Positions 2,144-55,832 of a DNA stretch of 64,000 bases are shown here, in pieces. The notes under the pieces are model-generated. The model searched no databases and was not told the DNA's origin. It saw only the letters and a program-made list of their open reading frames with translations. This DNA comes from Ignavibacteria bacterium UBA2333 (GTDB lineage Bacteria; Bacteroidota; Ignavibacteria; Kapaibacteriales; Kapaibacteriaceae), in NCBI GenBank assembly GCA_002344895.1, contig DDUR01000061.1, positions 125,569-189,568 of the forward strand. The letters run 5' to 3'. Position numbers and translations under genes: made by a program. Numbering within the stretch: position 1 is the first letter of the stretch; each line of letters opens with the position of its first letter.

Positions 2144-4264
2144 TTTTACTATCGGCATCACTGTTTGACAGAAATCTGTCGTAACAACATGTAGAAAGTA
2201 TACACCAGCAGGCAAGAGCTCTGTATCAACAATAGTCGATTCCTCACGTTGGTACAGTTTACATGAAATGATCCGTCCGGTCACGTCAAGCACTGTTACC
2301 TCAGCATGGCTCGGTACAACGATGGAACGGCCTCCATCAGTGCTATATACATAGCATAGTTGAACGGGACGCAGTTCTGTTGAGCCGTTAGTCGGCGGAT
2401 GGCCTGTTGTTGTTGAAAGTCTTGGTTTTGAGATGATGTCTGTCGACTTATACACGATGTAGATGGAATCTTGATCAACCCCAATCCCAACAATTGGCAC
2501 ATGTTTCCAGGCCTCATCAGTAGAATACAACTCCGATGTTGCCTCACCACGATACACCTTTAGCTGGATTGAAGGAGGGTATCTGTAGTCCCTCGCAGAG
2601 GATACGAGAGCTTTACCATCAAAGTGCGCTTGCGGTTGAACGACGTGTGACTGGAGTGTTTCAAGTGTGACCTGCCGATACACATCGTCATCACGTTGGA
2701 GAACCAGGAGTTTGGGACCCTCATGTTTTGCTGCCGCTGCTACAACCAGCACTTTTGACTGCGACATGTCGAATGCCATCGTCGTCGCCTGTGCTAACAT
2801 CGGAATGTGTCGGAATGCACCATGTGAGTACGAGTACCAACGCTGACCATACCCAACGACGTTGCAGTGGACAAGAAATCCGAGTGGATGTAGATAGTTG
2901 ATATCGAGCGGGACACCCGGGACGTCCTGAACTTCATTCCACGATACTCCGTCGTTCGTAGACACCATCAACCTTCCTAGCAAGGCCATCGCCATATCCA
3001 AGGTAGCATACATTGTTTCTGCCGATGGCGGCTTCAAGACGGTTCTCATTCCTGTCGAATCAATCAGCATGTGTTCGTTGGCAAGTTTTCTTACAACAAC
3101 GTCATGTGATTCGATAGCATAGGTTGCCTGGCTCGGCGTATTCTCAACAATACTCCACCAACGCAACCGCCCTGAATGGCGAGAGACAATAACGATTTGG
3201 GAGTAGTCAGCGTGCGGAATGAACGGCGGCCTACACTCCATCACGGCAATCTCGTTCCCGTCATATAACCGACGATAGTCGAGTATGCTATCGTATTCAC
3301 CAGAAACAGACTGATTCAGAATCCTATACTTCTTTATTGTGCTGTGGTAGTGGATACGAACGATACCTGCATGACTACCAAAACCCATCTGAATATTCGT
3401 AGGTGTAGGTGATGCAAACACGAGCGGAAGGTCAGAATCAAGCGGCGAATTCGGGTAGAACTCAGTTTGACATGTTCCTCGCGTGATATTAACCAAACAT
3501 GGTTTACGTATACCGTTGATCACCAGCGACGTCATAAACTCATCAGGCGACAATCTGAGGACGGAAACATCATCAGCAACACTTGAATCCGGCAATCCAA
3601 AGTACCATTGTAATTGGCCAAATCTCTCTTCGGAAACAGCAACCACACAACACGCAGAAGAAGTTACGATAACGGCAATTGTATCGTCGAGATACACGGA
3701 GCGAATAGAATCGAGCACGGGTATTGATTCACTTCGTACACCTCCTGACGTGCTCCTGACGAGCCTGCGCGTTGATGTAATCCAGGTTGTGGACGTTGGT
3801 GCGTATCGAACCTTTACAGCATCTGGAATTCGTTCATGCCGCACGAAGGATCCATCATAGTTCAATGTGATAATCGAGTCGCCCACGTACATAACAACCT
3901 TTTGGTTCTGCGTGTCAATATCTCGTACGGACGGGATATGCATCTTCCACCGCAGAACGGATTCCGTGAGTGATATACAAAACACGCTATCGTCCTTGGT
4001 GATGACGGCACCCGTTTCGGGAGCCATACTTATTCCACGACAGATATTCTTTGGATATGATGCCGGTCTCCATGACCATGTCCTTTCACCGGCAGAATAT
4101 CTCCATACATTTCCGTCTACATCTATTGCTACGTCACGTGCAGCCGGACCATCAAACATGGCGGCAATACGCGATGTCCATGGTGCCCGAAATCTCGTTT
4201 GCGCATCAACGACTGATGATACGAAGAGGAGACTAACCAGCAATGTGATGATACATCGCATCAC
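2135..4264 (-). CDS. Secreted BNR/Asp-box-repeat beta-propeller protein with a T9SS C-terminal sorting domain.
   Basis: There is an N-terminal signal peptide (MMRCIITLLVSLLFVSSVVDAQ). The Asp-box 'STNDGVSWNE' follows the S-x-D-x-G-x-T-W pattern. The C-terminus ...LLPAGVYFLHVVTTD...VMPIVKSR resembles a Por secretion tail. Confidence 0.6.
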   Translation of the reverse strand: MMRCIITLLVSLLFVSSVVDAQTRFRAPWTSRIAAMFDGPAARDVAIDVDGNVWRYSAGERTWSWRPASYPKNICRGISMAPETGAVITKDDSVFCISLTESVLRWKMHIPSVRDIDTQNQKVVMYVGDSIITLNYDGSFVRHERIPDAVKVRYAPTSTTWITSTRRLVRSTSGGVRSESIPVLDSIRSVYLDDTIAVIVTSSACCVVAVSEERFGQLQWYFGLPDSSVADDVSVLRLSPDEFMTSLVINGIRKPCLVNITRGTCQTEFYPNSPLDSDLPLVFASPTPTNIQMGFGSHAGIVRIHYHSTIKKYRILNQSVSGEYDSILDYRRLYDGNEIAVMECRPPFIPHADYSQIVIVSRHSGRLRWWSIVENTPSQATYAIESHDVVVRKLANEHMLIDSTGMRTVLKPPSAETMYATLDMAMALLGRLMVSTNDGVSWNEVQDVPGVPLDINYLHPLGFLVHCNVVGYGQRWYSYSHGAFRHIPMLAQATTMAFDMSQSKVLVVAAAAKHEGPKLLVLQRDDDVYRQVTLETLQSHVVQPQAHFDGKALVSSARDYRYPPSIQLKVYRGEATSELYSTDEAWKHVPIVGIGVDQDSIYIVYKSTDIISKPRLSTTTGHPPTNGSTELRPVQLCYVYSTDGGRSIVVPSHAEVTVLDVTGRIISCKLYQREESTIVDTELLPAGVYFLHVVTTDFCQTVMPIVKSR

Positions 4265-47832: not shown

Positions 47833-48977
47833 CGGGATTCTACATCCACGTACCGTTCTGCGACAAGAAGTGCTCGTATTGTGACTTCTACAGTATCGAG
47901 TCCGTTGGACTCATTGAACGATATGTCGATACCGTCATCCGCGAGATCGAACGTCGGGCAGACACCGTGCCAGGACCGATAACATCGGTGTTTTTTGGTG
48001 GTGGGACACCTTCGCTCCTTTCGCCCCTTCAACTTCAACGCATCATCGACACGATTCTCCGGGAGACACGGATTACCTCGGATGCAGAATGGACAATGGA
48101 ATGTAATCCTGGTACGGTCTCACTATCGTCACTTACGGCCTACCGCTCCTCTGGTATCAATCGCCTTAGTTTCGGAGTTCAATCAATTCATGCAGACGAA
48201 CTGACGTTTCTTGATCGCATCCATACTGCGGATCAAGCTTTTGAAGCTGTCGATCTGGCACGTCGTGCTGGATTCGACAATGTCAACGTTGACGTGATGT
48301 TTGCCCTACCGAATCAGTCAGCAGAAAAGTTATCGGCAACACTAGATCAAATCCTTCGCCTTGAGCCCGATCATGTAAGTGCGTACTCTCTTATTTATGA
48401 ACCCGGTACACCTCTCTATGCTCGAATGAAGAAGGGTCTTGTTGTCCCGGAATCCGAAGAGCATGATGCCGAACTCTATGCTCTCGTTATCGAACGTCTT
48501 GTGTCGGCTGGTTACGAACAATATGAAGTAAGCAACTTCTCGCGTAATGGAGCTACGTGCCGACACAACCTAACCTATTGGCATGGCCTCCCATATGTGT
48601 CGGTAGGCCCAAGCGCTCACGGGTTTGTTGGTGACGTTCGGTACTGGAATCTTCGATCTCTTACGGCATGGACGGAAGCTGTTGACAAAGGTGAACTTCC
48701 TGAGGCGAATCGCGAAAGACTCACACAGTTTGACAAGATTGTCGAGTTAGCCTTCCTTACTCTGCGAGCCGATGGAGTACCACTCTCAAAATTTCATCGC
48801 GACTATGGAATCGATGTCGTTGCAGCACTCGGTCCGCAACTTGGATACTGGCTTGACGCCGAGTTTGTCACACTGAATGCACAAACACTTCGACTCACCT
48901 CAAAGGGCTACGCTGTTTGTGATGAGCTTACCGTGAAGCTCGTTGGCGCAATCGAATCGGCCCTACTCGCCTCGTAA
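47829..48977 (+). CDS. hemW: Radical-SAM heme chaperone HemW (HemN-like, oxygen-independent coproporphyrinogen-III-oxidase family).
   Basis: The sequence YIHVPFCDKKCSYCDF carries the CxxxCxxC radical-SAM motif. The length is about 380 aa. Confidence 0.85.
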   Translation: MTGFYIHVPFCDKKCSYCDFYSIESVGLIERYVDTVIREIERRADTVPGPITSVFFGGGTPSLLSPLQLQRIIDTILRETRITSDAEWTMECNPGTVSLSSLTAYRSSGINRLSFGVQSIHADELTFLDRIHTADQAFEAVDLARRAGFDNVNVDVMFALPNQSAEKLSATLDQILRLEPDHVSAYSLIYEPGTPLYARMKKGLVVPESEEHDAELYALVIERLVSAGYEQYEVSNFSRNGATCRHNLTYWHGLPYVSVGPSAHGFVGDVRYWNLRSLTAWTEAVDKGELPEANRERLTQFDKIVELAFLTLRADGVPLSKFHRDYGIDVVAALGPQLGYWLDAEFVTLNAQTLRLTSKGYAVCDELTVKLVGAIESALLAS

Positions 48978-50165: not shown

Positions 50166-52285
50166 CGACCCTTTCGTGCGGCCATCAGGATCTTCTGCAC
50201 GCGGATACCATCTTCCTTGACGGGTACACGTTGATACGAACCGTCTGTTTGCAGAATCCGCGCCTTCACCGAATCGTCGAGATACGACTGTAACGACTCG
50301 CGAAGGCGTTTCCCTATGCGCTGATCAAGAATCGGGAACAACAATTCTACGCGCCGCTCCATGTTACGCGTCATCCAGTCTGCAGACGAGATGAAGGTCT
50401 CGGCCTCTCCGCCGTTTCGGAACCAGAAAATGCGAGAATGTTCGAGGAATCTGTCGAGGATACTGCGAACGGTAATGGTCTCACTCACGCCGGGGACACC
50501 AGGGCGCAGACAACAAACGCCCCGTACAATCAGATCAATCTTCACACCTGCTGCCGAAGCAGCGTAGAGTTCACGGATGATAATCGGGTCAATGAGTGCA
50601 TTCATCTTTGCAATGATATGCCCCTTTCGCCCCTTAGACTGATGATCGGCTTCTCGCCTGATAAGTTCGATAAATCGGTCGCGGAGGTTTACAGGAGCAA
50701 CACCAATCCGCTGCCAATTACGATAGCGTGAATACCCAGTTAGAAGATTAAACAAGTGTACAAAATCACGCTCAAACTCCTGGCGTCCTGTGAAAATGCC
50801 AATGTCCGTATAGATCCGTGATGTTGTCAGGTTGTAGTTGCCCGTGCTTACATGGGCATACGTAAGAACATTCCGACCTTCTTTTCGGATGACGAGACAA
50901 ACCTTACAATGTGTCTTTAGGCCCATAACGCCGTACACGACGTGAACACCAGATTGTTCGAGCTCACGAGCCCATTGGATGTTGTTCTCTTCATCAAAGC
51001 GGGCCTTCAGTTCAACAAAGGCCGTCACATTCTTTCCATTTATGGCAGCTCGTTTTAGTGCCTGGATTACTGGCGATTTACCGCCTGCTCGATAGAGTGT
51101 AATCTTCATGGCGAGCACATGCGGGTCATCTGCTCCCTGTTCGATAAACTTCACAACTGAATTTGTAAAAGAATCGAATGGGTGATGGACCATGATATCC
51201 TGCTCACGAAGGATATCAAAGATGTTTGTTCCGTCCTGAGCAAACTCAGGTAACACTCTCGACGTAAACGGAGGATCCTTGAGCTTGCGTTTGTCGAGCG
51301 ACATGAGCGTCAGAAAGTCCTGCAAGTTGAGCGGCATGTCTACGTGGTAGACATCCTGCTGATCAAGATCCAATGAGCGCAGTAGATAGGTAAGGAGCGA
51401 ACGGGGCATGTCTCGCTCCACTTCCAGGCGAACAGCATCGGTACCCCAACGACGTTGGCGGATTCCTTCGGCAACGGCTGTGATTAGGTCATTCGCCTCG
51501 TCTTCTGCAATCTCGACATCTGCGTCGCGCGTAACGCGGAAGATGTGACTCGACTGCAGACGAAGTCCGGGAAACAAAATCCCGGCATGAGCACGAATAA
51601 TATCCTCAAAAAGGATAAAATATGTTCCACCTGGCCGGCTCACACGGACAAGGCGCGGAAGCGCTGATGGCAGCTGAAGGACAGCTATACGTGTCTCATC
51701 CTCATCATCGGCGTTCGTATCAACGAGGGTAAAGGCAATTGTCAGAATTCTGTTGAGCAGCCGCGGGAAGGGGTGGCCGGGATCGAGAGCGAGCGGCGTA
51801 AGGACAGGCATGATGTTGTCAACAAAGTCCTGCTCAAACTCATGGCGCTCCTCTTCTGTGAGCTCGTCAAACGACAGAATAGATATTCCTTCCTTCCGCA
51901 GGGAGGGAATGATGTCTGTGTGATACAGGCTCGACTGCCAGGCATAGAGCGGAATCAACCGCTCCCGAATCAGCTTCATCTGCTCTGTAGGCGTCATACC
52001 GTCCGGCGAGAGTTCGGTGACACCGGAATAGATCTGCTCCATGAGGCCGGCAACGCGGATCATGAAGAACTCATCGAGATTAGTCGAGAAGATGCTGAGG
52101 AACTTCACACGTTCCAGAAGTGGATGTGAAGCATCAGCAGCCTCTTCGAGGACACGACGGTTAAACTCGAGCCAGGAAATCTCCCGATTTAAATAGAGGG
52201 TCTCATCATCGAGATCGACAACGGTCACCGGGTGGTCGGCAACGCCATTTGTCGTAAGTGCTTTTGCTGTCTTCTTGCGGGCCAT
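50162..52285 (-). CDS. ppk: Polyphosphate kinase 1.
   Basis: The sequence ...YLNREISWLEFNRRVLEEA... matches PPK1, and the length is about 700 aa. I placed the start at the Met of MARKKTAK. Confidence 0.9.
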   Translation of the reverse strand: MARKKTAKALTTNGVADHPVTVVDLDDETLYLNREISWLEFNRRVLEEAADASHPLLERVKFLSIFSTNLDEFFMIRVAGLMEQIYSGVTELSPDGMTPTEQMKLIRERLIPLYAWQSSLYHTDIIPSLRKEGISILSFDELTEEERHEFEQDFVDNIMPVLTPLALDPGHPFPRLLNRILTIAFTLVDTNADDEDETRIAVLQLPSALPRLVRVSRPGGTYFILFEDIIRAHAGILFPGLRLQSSHIFRVTRDADVEIAEDEANDLITAVAEGIRQRRWGTDAVRLEVERDMPRSLLTYLLRSLDLDQQDVYHVDMPLNLQDFLTLMSLDKRKLKDPPFTSRVLPEFAQDGTNIFDILREQDIMVHHPFDSFTNSVVKFIEQGADDPHVLAMKITLYRAGGKSPVIQALKRAAINGKNVTAFVELKARFDEENNIQWARELEQSGVHVVYGVMGLKTHCKVCLVIRKEGRNVLTYAHVSTGNYNLTTSRIYTDIGIFTGRQEFERDFVHLFNLLTGYSRYRNWQRIGVAPVNLRDRFIELIRREADHQSKGRKGHIIAKMNALIDPIIIRELYAASAAGVKIDLIVRGVCCLRPGVPGVSETITVRSILDRFLEHSRIFWFRNGGEAETFISSADWMTRNMERRVELLFPILDQRIGKRLRESLQSYLDDSVKARILQTDGSYQRVPVKEDGIRVQKILMAARKGR

Positions 52286-52369: not shown

Positions 52370-53989
52370 TTACTCACCAACGTAGACGACGGCCGTTTCT
52401 CGGATCACGCTTGTCGATGTCGCGTCGATTGCTTCCACAATGGCTACATACCGTCCACTCGCAACACGCAGTCCCCCATCGTCGGTACAATCCCATGCGA
52501 CCGTGGCCTCGGCACCGGACCATTCGGAATTCACGAGGGTGCGAATAGGACGTCCTGCAAGGTCGACAATCTTCAGGCCAACAATGCACCGTTGCAGAGG
52601 CACGGACCATGTTATCTGACATGGAAACCGCACATCGTACGGAGAGCCACTGCACGGAGTTGGCGAAACGGACAACTGGCCATCCATGGGAGGTGATTGT
52701 GCCGTCCCGGTTCCGGGTGTACCTCCACGAAAGTCGGCCGACGTTTTCCATGATCGAGGATCGGTACCGAGCCATGTTGGTCCTTGTCGCTCAAGAGATA
52801 CATTACGGCTGCGTTCCAGAAGTGCGTCGTGATACCTCGTATCGTAGATGGCAACGTCAACCACATATCCCGAAGGTGTTCTAAGAGTAATGGTGTCAGA
52901 ACTATTTGGTAAGGACAGGCGAGGTGATGTTAGTGACCACCGGACCCTATCGGATGGTGAGAGTAAGGTGAGTAGTGATGAATCAGCAGCGACGACACCG
53001 TATCCATTTGGTGGAAGAACAAGAGCTCGAATTGTCGTAGATCGTACCGTCCATGATGAAACGTCGACGAACTCAGATGTTGTATTCAGAATCTCGACAT
53101 AGTCTGGTCGATCTTCGTCCGTATCGAACATAATCTCGGAGATCACAATCGTACCAGGAGGTGGTGGTAGGATCTGCTGTTGGCGTATGGTGTCATTCGC
53201 CGTTCGATCATCACCCTCATTCAAACACGCTTCGACGGTAACGTTTGTTGGTGTTGTAATGGCAAGTGCTGATGCCACTTCGTCGATCGACACAGTTGTT
53301 CGGAAAAGACGCTGAGCAACATCGGCGACGGTTGCAAGCGACGGAACATCAACAACACGGCTGTATGTTCTGGAAGAAGAGCGAACCTCAAGGGTCAGCT
53401 TGCGCGGAGGAGAACGCTGCATTCCATGCTGGAGTACATCAACCGATAACGATCGATCGGCAGGTAGTATCTGAGCAACACGAACATCGTGTTGCAACAG
53501 CACAACGCTATTGAGGTAGCCGCACGTAGCACTATCTGCAGAAAGTGACGTTTGCCACAGACCACTATCGGTCCTTTCAAACGACCTGCCACGTCCAGAC
53601 GACGGAATACTGTACTCAACAGAGTCGATACCGGTGGTGTCTCCTGACGAAGACAGACGATACAGTCGCACGGCATCGGTAGTATTGTTCAGCGAAGGAA
53701 TACGCGCTTCAAGCAGAACAGCTGATGAGGGAATCGGTCGCGACTCTCGAAGAGCAAGTGTATCACGTGTTATCACCACAAAGGTTGACTCGGGTAACGA
53801 CTGCGTGATCTCGAAGGACGTACAGGTACGATTATCACATACCACGTATACACCAGCTGACACCGGACGCGTTGTTACCAACTCCACCCATTCCGGTTCA
53901 CCGGCTGCTGGTGTCGCGTAAATCTCGCTGATAAGAAGGGCAGGTAAGGCGCAAAGGGGGCTCATACTGTCGTTGTGGATGTACGGCAT
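52370..53989 (-). CDS. Secreted protein with two lamin-tail (LTD) domains and a T9SS C-terminal sorting domain.
   Basis: Two LTD signatures are present (ISEIYATPAAGEPEWVELV and VISEIMFDTDEDRPDYVEILN). The C-terminus LKIVDLAGRPIRTLV...WDCTDDGGLRVASGRYVAIVEA...VVYVGE matches the Por secretion tail pattern. The longer ORF, running to 54106, crosses the upstream repeat array and is probably not translated there. Confidence 0.55.
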   Translation of the reverse strand: MPYIHNDSMSPLCALPALLISEIYATPAAGEPEWVELVTTRPVSAGVYVVCDNRTCTSFEITQSLPESTFVVITRDTLALRESRPIPSSAVLLEARIPSLNNTTDAVRLYRLSSSGDTTGIDSVEYSIPSSGRGRSFERTDSGLWQTSLSADSATCGYLNSVVLLQHDVRVAQILPADRSLSVDVLQHGMQRSPPRKLTLEVRSSSRTYSRVVDVPSLATVADVAQRLFRTTVSIDEVASALAITTPTNVTVEACLNEGDDRTANDTIRQQQILPPPPGTIVISEIMFDTDEDRPDYVEILNTTSEFVDVSSWTVRSTTIRALVLPPNGYGVVAADSSLLTLLSPSDRVRWSLTSPRLSLPNSSDTITLRTPSGYVVDVAIYDTRYHDALLERSRNVSLERQGPTWLGTDPRSWKTSADFRGGTPGTGTAQSPPMDGQLSVSPTPCSGSPYDVRFPCQITWSVPLQRCIVGLKIVDLAGRPIRTLVNSEWSGAEATVAWDCTDDGGLRVASGRYVAIVEAIDATSTSVIRETAVVYVGE

Positions 53990-54002
53990 CACAATGTGAC
54001 AG

Positions 54003-54077
54003 TCCGGGGCAATTCTCCGGGAGAAATCTCCGGGAGAAATCTCCGGGACAATTCTCCCGGAGAATTCTCCGGGAGAA
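54003..54077. repeat. Tandem array of about 5 copies of a 13–14-bp palindromic unit (TCTCC-N-GGAGA half-sites, e.g. CTCCGGGAGAAAT).
   Basis: This is a direct read of AATTCTCCGGGAGAAATCTCCGGGAGAAATCTCCGGGACAATTCTCCCGGAGAATTCTCCGGGAGAAGG. All six frames are open across the array. Confidence 0.8.
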
Positions 54078-54113
54078 GGTGCCGGGGACCTTTTGGCCCC
54101 CGGCACCTTTTGA
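54078..54113. terminator. A strong GC-rich hairpin followed by a T-run, likely an intrinsic terminator (possibly bidirectional) downstream of the GAF gene.
   Basis: The stem is GGTGCCGGGGACC...GGCCCCCGGCACC, 10 bp perfect and extendable to about 13 bp, with a TTTT loop. It is followed by TTTTGA. Confidence 0.55.
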
Positions 54114-54114
54114 C

Positions 54115-54591
54115 TCAGGAGATTCGCCGAGCGATTTTTTCAAACAACGAACGCTCTAGATCAGAAAACCGAGCGCGTAGAGGACTGTCAACATCCAGCA
54201 CACCACGCACACGTCCGTCAGTGATCAGTGGCACAACAATCTCACTCTGTGATGCTGCATCACAAGCGATGTGACCAGGAAAGAGATCGACGTTGTCAAC
54301 GACGATAGTGCGTGCTTCGGCGGCGGCTGTGCCACACACGCCTCGTCCCACCTCAATGCGGATACAGGCCGGTAGTCCGAAGAATGGACCGAGGACGAGT
54401 GTGTTTTCCTTAAGAAGATAGAAGCCAACCCAATTGATGTCGTCTACCGTATGGTGCAAGACACTGGCAATGTTAGCCATGTTCGCAATGAGGTCAGTCT
54501 CATCACCTATTATCGTATCGATGGTTTGATATACAAGATCATACCATTCGCCAGTGTCCGACACACTGTCACGCGGTGGAAGTGTGAACAT
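54115..54591 (-). CDS. GAF-domain protein, like free methionine-(R)-sulfoxide reductase (fRMsr/MsrC).
   Basis: The sequence ...NWVGFYLL...GPFFGLPACIRIEVGRGVCGTAA... is the GAF/fRMsr signature and includes the conserved Cys. The length is 158 aa. Confidence 0.7.
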   Translation of the reverse strand: MFTLPPRDSVSDTGEWYDLVYQTIDTIIGDETDLIANMANIASVLHHTVDDINWVGFYLLKENTLVLGPFFGLPACIRIEVGRGVCGTAAAEARTIVVDNVDLFPGHIACDAASQSEIVVPLITDGRVRGVLDVDSPLRARFSDLERSLFEKIARRIS

Positions 54592-55832
54592 CAGGCGAGC
54601 TTTTTGAAGACGACGATGGCATTATGTCCACCAAATCCGAACGTGTTACTCATGGCAACGGAAATGTCTGCCGTTACGGCCACACCCGCAGCAATAGGTA
54701 CATCGGCCGGCATGTTTTCATCTCGCTCAACAAGATTGATCGTCGGAGGTACAATTCCATCACGCATGGCGAGAATGGTTGCAATACTCTCAACAGCACC
54801 GGCAGCACCGAGCAGGTGACCTGTCATCGACTTGGTTGATGTGACAATGGTCTTCATTCCATCACCGAAGACGTTACGAATGGCCGTAATCTCCGACTCG
54901 TCACCCTTCGGCGTACTCGTTGCATGCGCATTCACATGTTGCACATCAGATGCTTTTAGTCCGGCACGTTCAATCGCCAGGCGCATTCCCTTCGCAGCAC
55001 CCAGTCCCTCCGGATGCGTAGCCGTCATGTGGAAGGCATCTGATGTTTGCGCATGGCCAACAACTTCGCAGAGGATAGTAGCGCCACGCCGAAGAGCATG
55101 TTCGTACTCTTCAACGATTACGGCGCCAGCTCCTTCGCCGATAACAAATCCGTCACGATCCTTATCAAACGGACGAGATGCTCGCTGAGGATCGTCATTC
55201 CGGGTAGAAAGAGCTTTACTCGAGCTAAATCCACCAACGGCACTTTCGGTAATTGCCGCCTCACTTCCACCAGCCACAACGACGTCTGCATATCCCAACA
55301 TCACGTAGATGGCCGCTTCAATGATTGCCGTTGTTGATGTAGCACAGGCAGATACTGGAGCAAAGGTTGGCCCGCGGAATCCATATGTGATACTGATCAG
55401 TCCACTCGGCATGTCGACAATCATCTTCGGCACGAGGAACGGGCTAAACCGTGGAGTACCGTCACCACGAGCATAGTCGGCAATCTGTGCATGGAGTGTA
55501 GAGATGCCACCATTACCACTACCCCAAATGACTCCAACACGATCCTTGTCAATTGTGTCTATGGCGAGCCCCGAATTCCGAATTGCTTCGTCTGCTGCTA
55601 CCAGTGCAAACTGTGTAAATCGGTCCGTATTCTGCACAAGTTTACGATCAAGATGTGCAGATGGATCAAAACCCTTGACCTCGCAGGCAAACTGTACACG
55701 GAATCGAGAAGCATCAAAGAGTGTAATCGGTGCTGCTCCACTTGTTCCAGCTATCATTGCCTGCCAGGTGGATTCGACAGTGTTGCCAAGTGGTGTGATG
55801 GCTCCAAGGCCAGTAATGACGACTCGTTTCAT
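54591..55832 (-). CDS. fabF: 3-oxoacyl-ACP synthase II.
   Basis: The N-terminus is MKRVVITGLGAITPLGNTVESTW. The Cys-His-His KAS active-site contexts are present, and the length is 413 aa. Confidence 0.9.
   Translation of the reverse strand: MKRVVITGLGAITPLGNTVESTWQAMIAGTSGAAPITLFDASRFRVQFACEVKGFDPSAHLDRKLVQNTDRFTQFALVAADEAIRNSGLAIDTIDKDRVGVIWGSGNGGISTLHAQIADYARGDGTPRFSPFLVPKMIVDMPSGLISITYGFRGPTFAPVSACATSTTAIIEAAIYVMLGYADVVVAGGSEAAITESAVGGFSSSKALSTRNDDPQRASRPFDKDRDGFVIGEGAGAVIVEEYEHALRRGATILCEVVGHAQTSDAFHMTATHPEGLGAAKGMRLAIERAGLKASDVQHVNAHATSTPKGDESEITAIRNVFGDGMKTIVTSTKSMTGHLLGAAGAVESIATILAMRDGIVPPTINLVERDENMPADVPIAAGVAVTADISVAMSNTFGFGGHNAIVVFKKLA

Follow-up and report, generated by a model that had tools for sequence, protein, structure and literature searches.

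The stretch of DNA analyzed here (64,000 nucleotides of contig DDUR01000061.1 from Ignavibacteria bacterium UBA2333, hereafter the window) carries at positions 54000-54135 a cluster of palindromic repeats between a GAF-domain gene and a lamin-tail-domain (LTD) gene, and this cluster and the repeat family to which it most likely belongs are the subject of the present work. The genes around the element are all encoded on the minus strand, in the order reprolysin/LamG, fabF, GAF, LTD and ppk, and gene calls and Pfam matches confirmed the location between the GAF/fabF genes and the LTD gene that had been given in an earlier note made from the sequence. The features of the locus, with palindromic units abbreviated as PUs, are as follows.

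54000-54012, no strand assigned: degenerate terminal PU, CAGTCCGGGGCAA on the plus strand and TTGCCCCGGACTG in gene orientation
54013-54077, no strand assigned: five head-to-tail 13-bp PUs of the form TTCTCC-S-GGAGAA, delimited by Tandem Repeats Finder, shuffled sequences and the module map
54078-54107, no strand assigned: hairpin module H, GGTGCCGGGGACC-TTTT-GGCCCCCGGCACC, with a GC-rich 13-bp stem and a 4-nt loop
54108-54121, plus strand: polar flank motif T, TTTTGACTCAGGAG, with 0 mismatches to the family consensus
54123-54135, no strand assigned: PU-like 13-mer, TTCGCCGAGCGAT, with 9/13 matches to the unit, at the place where other copies carry a PU after T
60839-55914, minus strand: gene for a reprolysin/LamG protein with a secretion tail
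55832-54591, minus strand: fabF
54591-54115, minus strand: GAF-domain gene (158 aa, Pfam GAF/GAF_2), the last of the fabF-GAF pair
53995-54000, minus strand: GTCACA motif, beginning exactly 35 nt before the LTD ATG
52370-53965, minus strand: LTD gene (531 aa, Pfam LTD), with a conserved ATG at 53965

The palindromic array of TCTCC and GGAGA half-sites described in the earlier note was borne out by two measures. Tandem Repeats Finder reported an array at 54003-54077 with period 13, 5.8 copies, 87% matches and a score of 108, all other arrays in the window scoring 39 or less, and the core TCTCCGGGAGA, searched on both strands with up to 1 mismatch, was found 11 times in the window, 10 of them inside the array, against an expectation of 0.8 and with none of 100 shuffled sequences reaching 11. 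The five good units occupy 54013-25, 54026-38, 54039-51, 54052-64 and 54065-77, and on the plus strand their centre bases are G, G, G, C and G, each 13-bp unit being a perfect palindrome with a free central C or G. The degenerate sixth unit at 54000-54012 is kept in the 13-bp register of the array, its last base overlaps the conserved GTCACA motif, and its homologue in relatives reads TTGTCCCGGCCTG or TTGTCCACGCCTG. To judge by its position and partial match, the 13-mer at 54123-54135 is probably a further degenerate PU. The element reaches past the interval 54003-54113 that had been proposed, as far as 54135, and occupies 54000-54135. Another PU-like 13-mer in the window, at 48055-48067 (TTCTCCGGGAGAC), was set aside as a chance match, lying inside a radical-SAM/HemN-like coding sequence that is conserved as coding in two relatives (L012 and L013).

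Read in gene orientation, the GAF stop codon TGA is followed by GTCAAAA, the hairpin GGTGCCGGGGGCC-AAAA-GGTCCCCGGCACC, the units TTCTCCCGGAGAA TTCTCCGGGAGAA TTGTCCCGGAGAT TTCTCCCGGAGAT TTCTCCCGGAGAA TTGCCCCGGACTG and then TCACATTGTG. The GC-rich hairpin with its TTTT loop stands as first described, with 13-nt arms, except that its stem is not perfect, containing one A.C mismatch on the plus strand that becomes a G.U pair on the minus strand, and that the T-run after H exists on the plus strand only. The T motif contains TGA on both strands and lies on one side of H in most copies. Folding of the region as RNA, one of the checks suggested in the earlier note, gave z values of about -10 on both strands. 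H alone folds at -34.0 kcal/mol on the minus strand and -32.6 kcal/mol on the plus strand, and the sense-strand RNA of the array folds at -47.1 kcal/mol (z = -5.4), so that one long hairpin or cruciform is possible. Outside the locus, the only perfect stems in the 64-kb window of at least 9 bp with loops of 3-8 nt were those at 51193 and 53475, neither of which is GC-rich. From this stem scan, canonical intrinsic-terminator hairpins seem to be scarce in this genome. A scan for the sigma-70 promoter consensus at the locus gave no match, a terminator consensus scan of 53500-54600 returned 0 terminators, and Rfam at a permissive threshold yielded only generic long-hairpin matches (miRNA precursors, leaders) far below their gathering scores, the best with 31.9 bits versus 104.

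A scan of metagenome assemblies for two adjacent units revealed that the repeats are not restricted to this spacer. It recovered 36 loci, mostly in ERZ761609 (35-40x coverage), ERZ761607 and ERZ761602 (~3x), with a GC content of 0.48-0.52. When the window was pooled with 17 ERZ761609 loci (198,483 bp in total), 148 PUs (up to 1 mismatch) and 17 H copies (up to 3 mismatches) were counted, the repeats being distributed among 13 or more contigs of a single assembly. By BLAST, the other loci resembled the window only at 54003-54123, and H plus T copies elsewhere were 91-96% identical to the window copy. The proteins encoded beside the arrays have exact matches in two metagenome-assembled genomes (MAGs), one with DIS79_... 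locus tags ("Bacteroidetes bacterium") and one with HRK0... tags ("Chlorobiota bacterium"); since these are the MAGs that hold the fabF, GAF and LTD genes of the window (HRK03485-87, the LTD gene being also DIS79_05130), the other loci can be assigned to the same organism. Hence PUs, H and T all recur at dozens of unrelated sites of one genome, which supports the suggestion of the earlier note that the array could be a REP-like or cruciform-forming element (REP, repetitive extragenic palindrome). We consider it likely that the stretch 54000-54135 represents a single local cluster within a lineage-specific interspersed repeat family that is made of several modules and is of the type of REPs and bacterial interspersed mosaic elements (BIMEs).

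The commonest form of the family is a self-complementary doublet, Pg-Pc (TTCTCCGGGAGAA-NTCTCCCGGAGAA), of about 28 bp with a 12-bp stem and a folding energy of -21.1 kcal/mol. The conserved element around doublets can be written A[T/C]-TCTCCGGGAGA-A[T/C/G]-TCTCCCGGAGA-[A/G]T. Reiteration of doublets, with spacers that are nearly identical, produces higher-order periods of 40-101 bp, and pure 13-bp arrays also exist, the longest with 13 units (L138) and shorter ones at L137, L151 and in the window. Alternation Pg-Pc accounts for 58 of 93 13-bp junctions; by type, G>C junctions number 58, C>C 17 and G>G 14, and the sole C>G junction is that of the window. The H consensus is GGTGCCGGGGRCC-WWWW-GGYCCCCGGCACC, and the canonical order of modules is H, T (TTTTGACTCAGGAG) and PU. 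A third, G-rich motif, TAGGGGG[C/T]AAAAGGGGC, lies about 20 nt from several H copies, at the following approximate sites.

L136:5120-5150: third motif, within the composite repeat
L141:185-210: third motif, within the composite repeat
L162:3865-3890: third motif
L160:1780-1805: third motif

The composite repeat of L141 and L136 is about 190 bp long and consists of hairpin, T motif, 70 nt, doublet and 50 nt. Also at L141, 219 bp separate a cluster of hairpin, T motif, doublet and hairpin from the gene (463-1389) of a protein with an HNH_2 endonuclease domain; no other nuclease-like gene was seen near the repeats, and the case is a single observation. At L162, a parS-like consensus palindrome, TGTTCCACGTGAAACA (3537-3552), lies beside two H copies and mnmG/mnmE, and probably marks the origin-proximal region of the same organism.

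The genes on either side of an array may be tandem, convergent or divergent. All H copies are intergenic, and most of them lie 8-65 bp past a stop codon, in either orientation. This position, together with the great stability of the hairpins, the near absence of other strong hairpins from the 64-kb window, and the fact that, on the strand of the T motif, H and the TTTT after it make up a canonical terminator, would be expected if H were a portable intrinsic terminator and if hairpin and array had been selected as a terminator, insulator or mRNA-stability element between fabF-GAF and LTD. We regard such a selected role as decidedly improbable: the T-run is antisense at the locus, where the sense RNA reads UUCUCC after the stem and the consensus scan was negative, about half of the H copies near gene ends are wrongly oriented for the nearest gene, and termination needs no PU array, the number of whose units varies. 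An intrinsic terminator of fabF-GAF was accordingly rejected as an explanation, the stem being present with the sense strand reading UUCUCCC and the T-run on the antisense strand.

The design of the PU itself brings up another explanation, namely that PUs are sites for a genome-wide dimeric DNA-binding protein (nucleoid-associated, chromosome-organizing, or a CCSGG-palindrome nuclease or methylase) and that the arrays are its loading platforms. A perfect 13-bp palindrome with a free centre is shaped like a site for a homodimer, conservation is far stronger in the core TCTCCSGGAGA than in the 2-nt linkers, and the chirality of the doublets (58 G>C against 1 C>G) goes beyond what hairpin stability alone would give; moreover, BIMEs are known protein-binding sites (PMC2817692). 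We nevertheless hold this explanation to be improbable, given that no candidate binding protein was identified for the PUs, that 13-bp head-to-tail packing would place successive dimers about 85 degrees apart round the helix and unspaced, that copy number varies freely across strains and that the sites are tolerated in coding linkers. Binding of such a protein would in any case be compatible with an origin of the sites as a repeat family.

That the repeats enter coding sequences was established from protein domains and alignments; a greedy count of open reading frames (ORFs) was abandoned, spurious ORFs crossing the stop-free arrays. Several arrays lie in long ORFs, which encode an HTTM/VKGC protein, a family-9 glycosyltransferase (GT9), a beta-helix protein and a 638-residue product, the last with an in-frame array and no Pfam match. 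In the first of these, the HTTM domain (residues 21-275) and the VKGC lumenal domain (364-507) are in one frame with the repeats between them, and the repeat insert of about 60 residues is absent from all homologues aligned (60-63% identity) and present in an independent JGI protein that is 99% identical. GT9 contains LPENPPGELVARELSGRT three times, and the GT9 proteins of different assemblies are 100% identical but for one 18-residue (54-bp) repeat. In the beta-helix protein, the units stand directly before the secretion tail. The periods of the intragenic arrays (54, 57 and 51 bp) are all multiples of three, and those of intergenic arrays are unconstrained. Every frame of an idealized array is stop-free and encodes cyclic permutations of a 13-residue peptide, LRENSPGEFSGRI, or LPENSPGEFSRRI on the other strand; the predicted peptides of intragenic arrays include ILRENSPGEF and LPENPPGELVAR. 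The PU-encoded peptide gave 1 match in 5.8 billion protein clusters, in a search where short matches cannot reach significance, which suggests that the repeat is not a common protein motif. At one further locus (L132:1856-2716, minus strand), a 287-residue ORF has a short hydrophobic start followed by five ILRESPPGEFTSDF-type repeats with a 42-bp period, and the same locus in another sample (L161) has four such repeats; these are either translated or upstream of the true start.

Comparison of the GAF-LTD locus among samples and relatives showed that the array has changed by whole units. Contigs that encode the GAF protein number 23 and come from many samples, and the full structure was found in more than 10 independent assemblies, which argues that it is no assembly artefact. 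A chimera created from palindromic reads would agree with the many short-read contigs that break exactly in the hairpin or the arrays, such as the Logan contigs that stop inside the hairpin, and with the annotation of GAF and GT9 as "partial" in one MAG. We give that explanation almost no credence, however, as the full structure is identical in independent ENA, JGI and NCBI assemblies of different samples, and its point and unit-number differences behave like alleles. The spacer is identical in L001 and L002 and has a loop change in L003, and a G->A change in L004 and L009 makes the H stem perfect. Five good units are present in the window, L001-L003 and L011, and four, exactly one 13-bp unit fewer than in the window, in L008 and L010. 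The LTD homologues form a tight group of 100, 92, 87 and 86% identity, the next ones, from Kapabacteria/Ignavibacteria MAGs, having at most 38%. The 92%-identity relative has all six units, with point changes, and the 86%-identity relative (L013) has the hairpin followed by a single good unit and a degenerate one. Finally, in four more distant syntenic GAF-LTD(-ppk) loci (L126-L129, about 9 kb each), in which the spacers are 36-100 bp, neither H nor PUs were found. The element was therefore acquired recently, in the clade of the window, and the array grew from 1 to 5 units in the lineage of the window. Taken together with the copies inside genes, these data show that the family is dispersed in the genome, also in frame within genes, and that it expands and contracts by whole units.

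The same comparison bears on the proposals of the earlier note that the array could be a multi-site operator or a structured 5' leader for the LTD gene, to which a promoter that is phase-variable through gain and loss of 13 bp can be added. The array does resemble multi-site operators or iterons in that tandem palindromic sites lie upstream of a gene. It ends 35 nt upstream of the LTD start codon, the 13-bp copy-number polymorphism does exist within the species, and the LTD protein family has members with secretion-tail domains. Operators, however, are conserved with their gene and limited to a regulon, whereas here the repeats are absent from the distant syntenic orthologues, the 86%-identity relative has one unit, and identical repeats lie beside and inside unrelated genes throughout the genome. 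In addition, the array is placed upstream of both the conserved start and the in-frame stop of relatives, no sigma-70-like promoter was found, no Rfam family reached its threshold, and gain or loss of units leaves the sequence next to the GTCACA/ATG region unchanged because the units are all alike. Neither proposal is supported by this evidence, the repeats being, in the words used in the earlier note for what would speak against them, absent or variable with no functional correlate, and we deem any locus-specific cis-regulation of LTD highly improbable. In the sequences compared, the element does not accompany the LTD gene outside the clade, and we infer that the cluster has no LTD-specific function.

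The boundaries of the flanking genes are affected by the element. All six frames are stop-free across the array, and this inflates the LTD ORF calls, as had been noticed before: the longer calls of 578 or 539 aa extend into the repeats, versus the conserved 531 aa. The ATG at 53965 was taken as the start, since an in-frame TAA lies 18 nt before it in L011-L013 and the upstream ATG is not conserved. These two facts and the frame-shifting 13-bp indel also exclude the array as a coding N-terminus of the LTD protein, a family in which some members have secretion-tail domains. The only upstream sequence common to the clade of the window and the distant orthologues is the GTCACA motif, which is outside the repeat family and lies at 35 nt in the window, L011-L013, L126 and L127, and at a different distance in L129. 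On this comparison, it marks the edge of the ancestral spacer, and it may be a promoter or a translation-related element of the LTD gene. On the other side, the GAF stop codon is the minus-strand TGA at 54117-54115, inside the T motif, so that the present stop codon of the gene is borne by the element. The 3' end of GAF also lies inside the repeat element, where 54123-54135 supplies the codons for the final ..ARRI. The protein has ..EKIARRIS* as its C-terminus, whereas three syntenic orthologues go on with a conserved ..LLxxxCDW.. tail of 13-17 residues, which suggests that about 13-17 codons at the 3' end of the gene gave way to the element.

Among the known repeats that the family most resembles are REPs, which in PMC2817692 and PMC3733652 are described as 20-40-bp palindromes with many copies, paired in opposite orientation, that can be reiterated in tandem with their flanking DNA, cluster, supply stop codons and are in some cases inside genes. 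The family shares with REPs and BIMEs the GC-rich palindromes of 28-30 bp with 12-13-bp stems and 4-nt loops (H has 30 bp and a 13-bp stem, the Pg-Pc doublet 28 bp and a 12-bp stem), the many copies in the 198 kb sampled, which are mostly intergenic, the units in opposite orientation, the tandem dimers with their flanks, the stop codons or intragenic copies and the G.T pairs in stems. The mosaic of BIMEs is reproduced in architecture only, with the Pg-Pc alternation and with H, T and the G-rich motif in fixed order, and in sequence there is no relation to the enterobacterial Y/Z units. Unlike in REPs, the two arms of the doublet are 13-bp palindromes in their own right, so that arrays can lengthen head-to-tail by 13 bp at a time, reaching 13 units at L138.

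The classic in-frame intragenic palindromic repeats are the Rickettsia palindromic elements (RPEs; PMC10969869). Like these, the repeats of the family are in frame in unrelated functional genes, to which they add peptide, apparently in linkers or loops (PMC10969869, PMC3733652), as in the HTTM/VKGC insert and the GT9 variant. RPEs are single insertions of about 100-150 bp (RPE-1) or REP-sized (RPE-4/6), whereas here the unit is 13 bp and the intragenic copies are in tandem with periods of 51, 54 and 57 bp; the window copy, in contrast to those in genes, is intergenic and non-coding.

Three other kinds of element were compared with the family. SPRITE, a pneumococcal terminator-like repeat, resembles H-TTTT in being a repeated terminator-shaped stem-loop just downstream of genes, but there is no sequence relation, about half of the copies here are misoriented for the nearest gene, and H is combined with PU arrays. 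The mycobacterial interspersed repetitive units (MIRUs), reportedly described by Supply et al. in 1997, are said to be non-palindromic and 46-101 bp long. The family is like them in consisting of dispersed tandem repeats in operon spacers that overlap flanking stop and start codons and vary in copy number among strains, and unlike them in its 13-bp palindromic unit and hairpin module. A CRISPR array was rejected, the window array having no spacers and the "spacers" elsewhere being near-identical copies, that is, long-period tandem repeats.

Several searches looked for relatives of the family beyond the organism. Neither the region nor the hairpin was matched in searches of plasmids, phages and IMG/VR, and a literature search on Kapabacteria repeats turned up nothing relevant. 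A scan of a genome collection for TCTCCSGGAGA-N{2,28}-TCTCCSGGAGA, a pattern that proved too permissive, returned, among the matches listed, unrelated hairpins and tandem repeats from many phyla. The Acidobacteria MAG LacPavin_0419_WC70S_MAG_67_7 has its own dispersed palindrome, AAACCTCTCCSGGAGAGGTTT, with a TCTCCSGGAGA core, at no fewer than seven loci (L029, L033, L059, L071, L080, L086 and L087), which looks like an independent REP-like family of an unrelated MAG. Arrays of related units with a 13-bp period were also seen at L146:2564-2650, L153:73-159 and L140:1039-1112 (TTGTCCCGGAGAC four times; TTCTCCGGGACAA two to three times), on contigs from sediment (GC 0.50-0.53) and human gut, and either come from kin lineages or are convergent arrays. 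The family has no sequence similarity to described REPs, and its host is an uncultured Kapabacteria-like bacterium of the FCB group. The family is best read as undescribed and REP/BIME/RPE-like, outside the tagged REP superfamilies.

Some observations weigh against the assignment to a REP/BIME-type family. The GTAG/CGTC tag of REPs was found in 0 of 17 H copies, GACG occurring within 8 nt in 5 of them with no fixed position, and nearby GTAG accompanies 3 of 60 doublets and nearby CGTC 1 of 60. Around doublets, no target-site duplication or insertion context was found beyond the palindrome (A.-...-.T), and no transposase or RAYT domain was present among the 20 ORFs adjoining H clusters (about 260 kb of genome). 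The 64-kb window has this one cluster only, so repeat density is uneven, and MAG binning, coverage, GC and repeat identity, rather than a closed genome, are what place the other loci in the same organism. At the locus itself, the sense strand has no U-tract after the hairpin, reading UUCUCC instead. A DNA-binding protein that uses the PUs could also be involved.

A REP/BIME-type origin nonetheless offers a plausible course of events at this locus. The H-T module would have landed in the 3' end of GAF, within an ancestral GAF-LTD-ppk transcription unit, co-transcription of these genes being suggested by the spacers of 36-100 bp in relatives. The PUs would then have been amplified via slipped-strand or hairpin-mediated misalignment, and two very stable stem-loops may now form in the GAF-LTD intercistronic RNA or DNA, where they could shield the upstream message from 3'-5' decay or attenuate read-through, like the REPs of Escherichia coli operons. 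With stable stem-loops, no U-tract after the first of them and no terminator called, 3'-end protection or partial attenuation is the likeliest local effect, one that is likely to be structural and not a gene-specific switch.

The spread of the family to new sites could have involved a transposase or nuclease acting in trans, or recombination. Since no GTAG/CGTC tag and no target-site duplication were found, spread without RAYT-type transposition may be proposed. We advance as unlikely, though worth stating, the idea that the 13-bp unit is the core of an undescribed self-amplifying palindromic DNA, frame-neutral and strand-symmetric, that spreads in such a way, one possibility being a dedicated dimeric nuclease or DNA-binding protein that recognizes TCTCC-S-GGAGA. 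If this were true, a frame-neutral unit could settle in intergenic DNA as well as in the coding sequence of protein linkers, and the origin and multiplication of untagged REP-like repeats would be tractable by experiment in this family.

For the organism, the repeats explain why its MAGs show inflated ORF calls, "partial" genes and broken contigs, and the locus cautions that a conspicuous palindrome array upstream of a gene need not be an operator. The locus itself is ordinary repetitive DNA, and its significance lies in the family that it revealed, which is undescribed, recently active and of unusual sequence design, its unit being a nested palindrome that is free of stops in all six frames and specifies the same peptide on either strand. 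Recent activity is visible in the growth from 1 to 5 units between close relatives and in the unit-number alleles, both intergenic and in frame within genes, and to it is added the remodelling of a gene 3' end borne by the element. The family thus bears on the origin and spread of REP-type repeats without a dedicated transposase, and on length variation of protein linkers.

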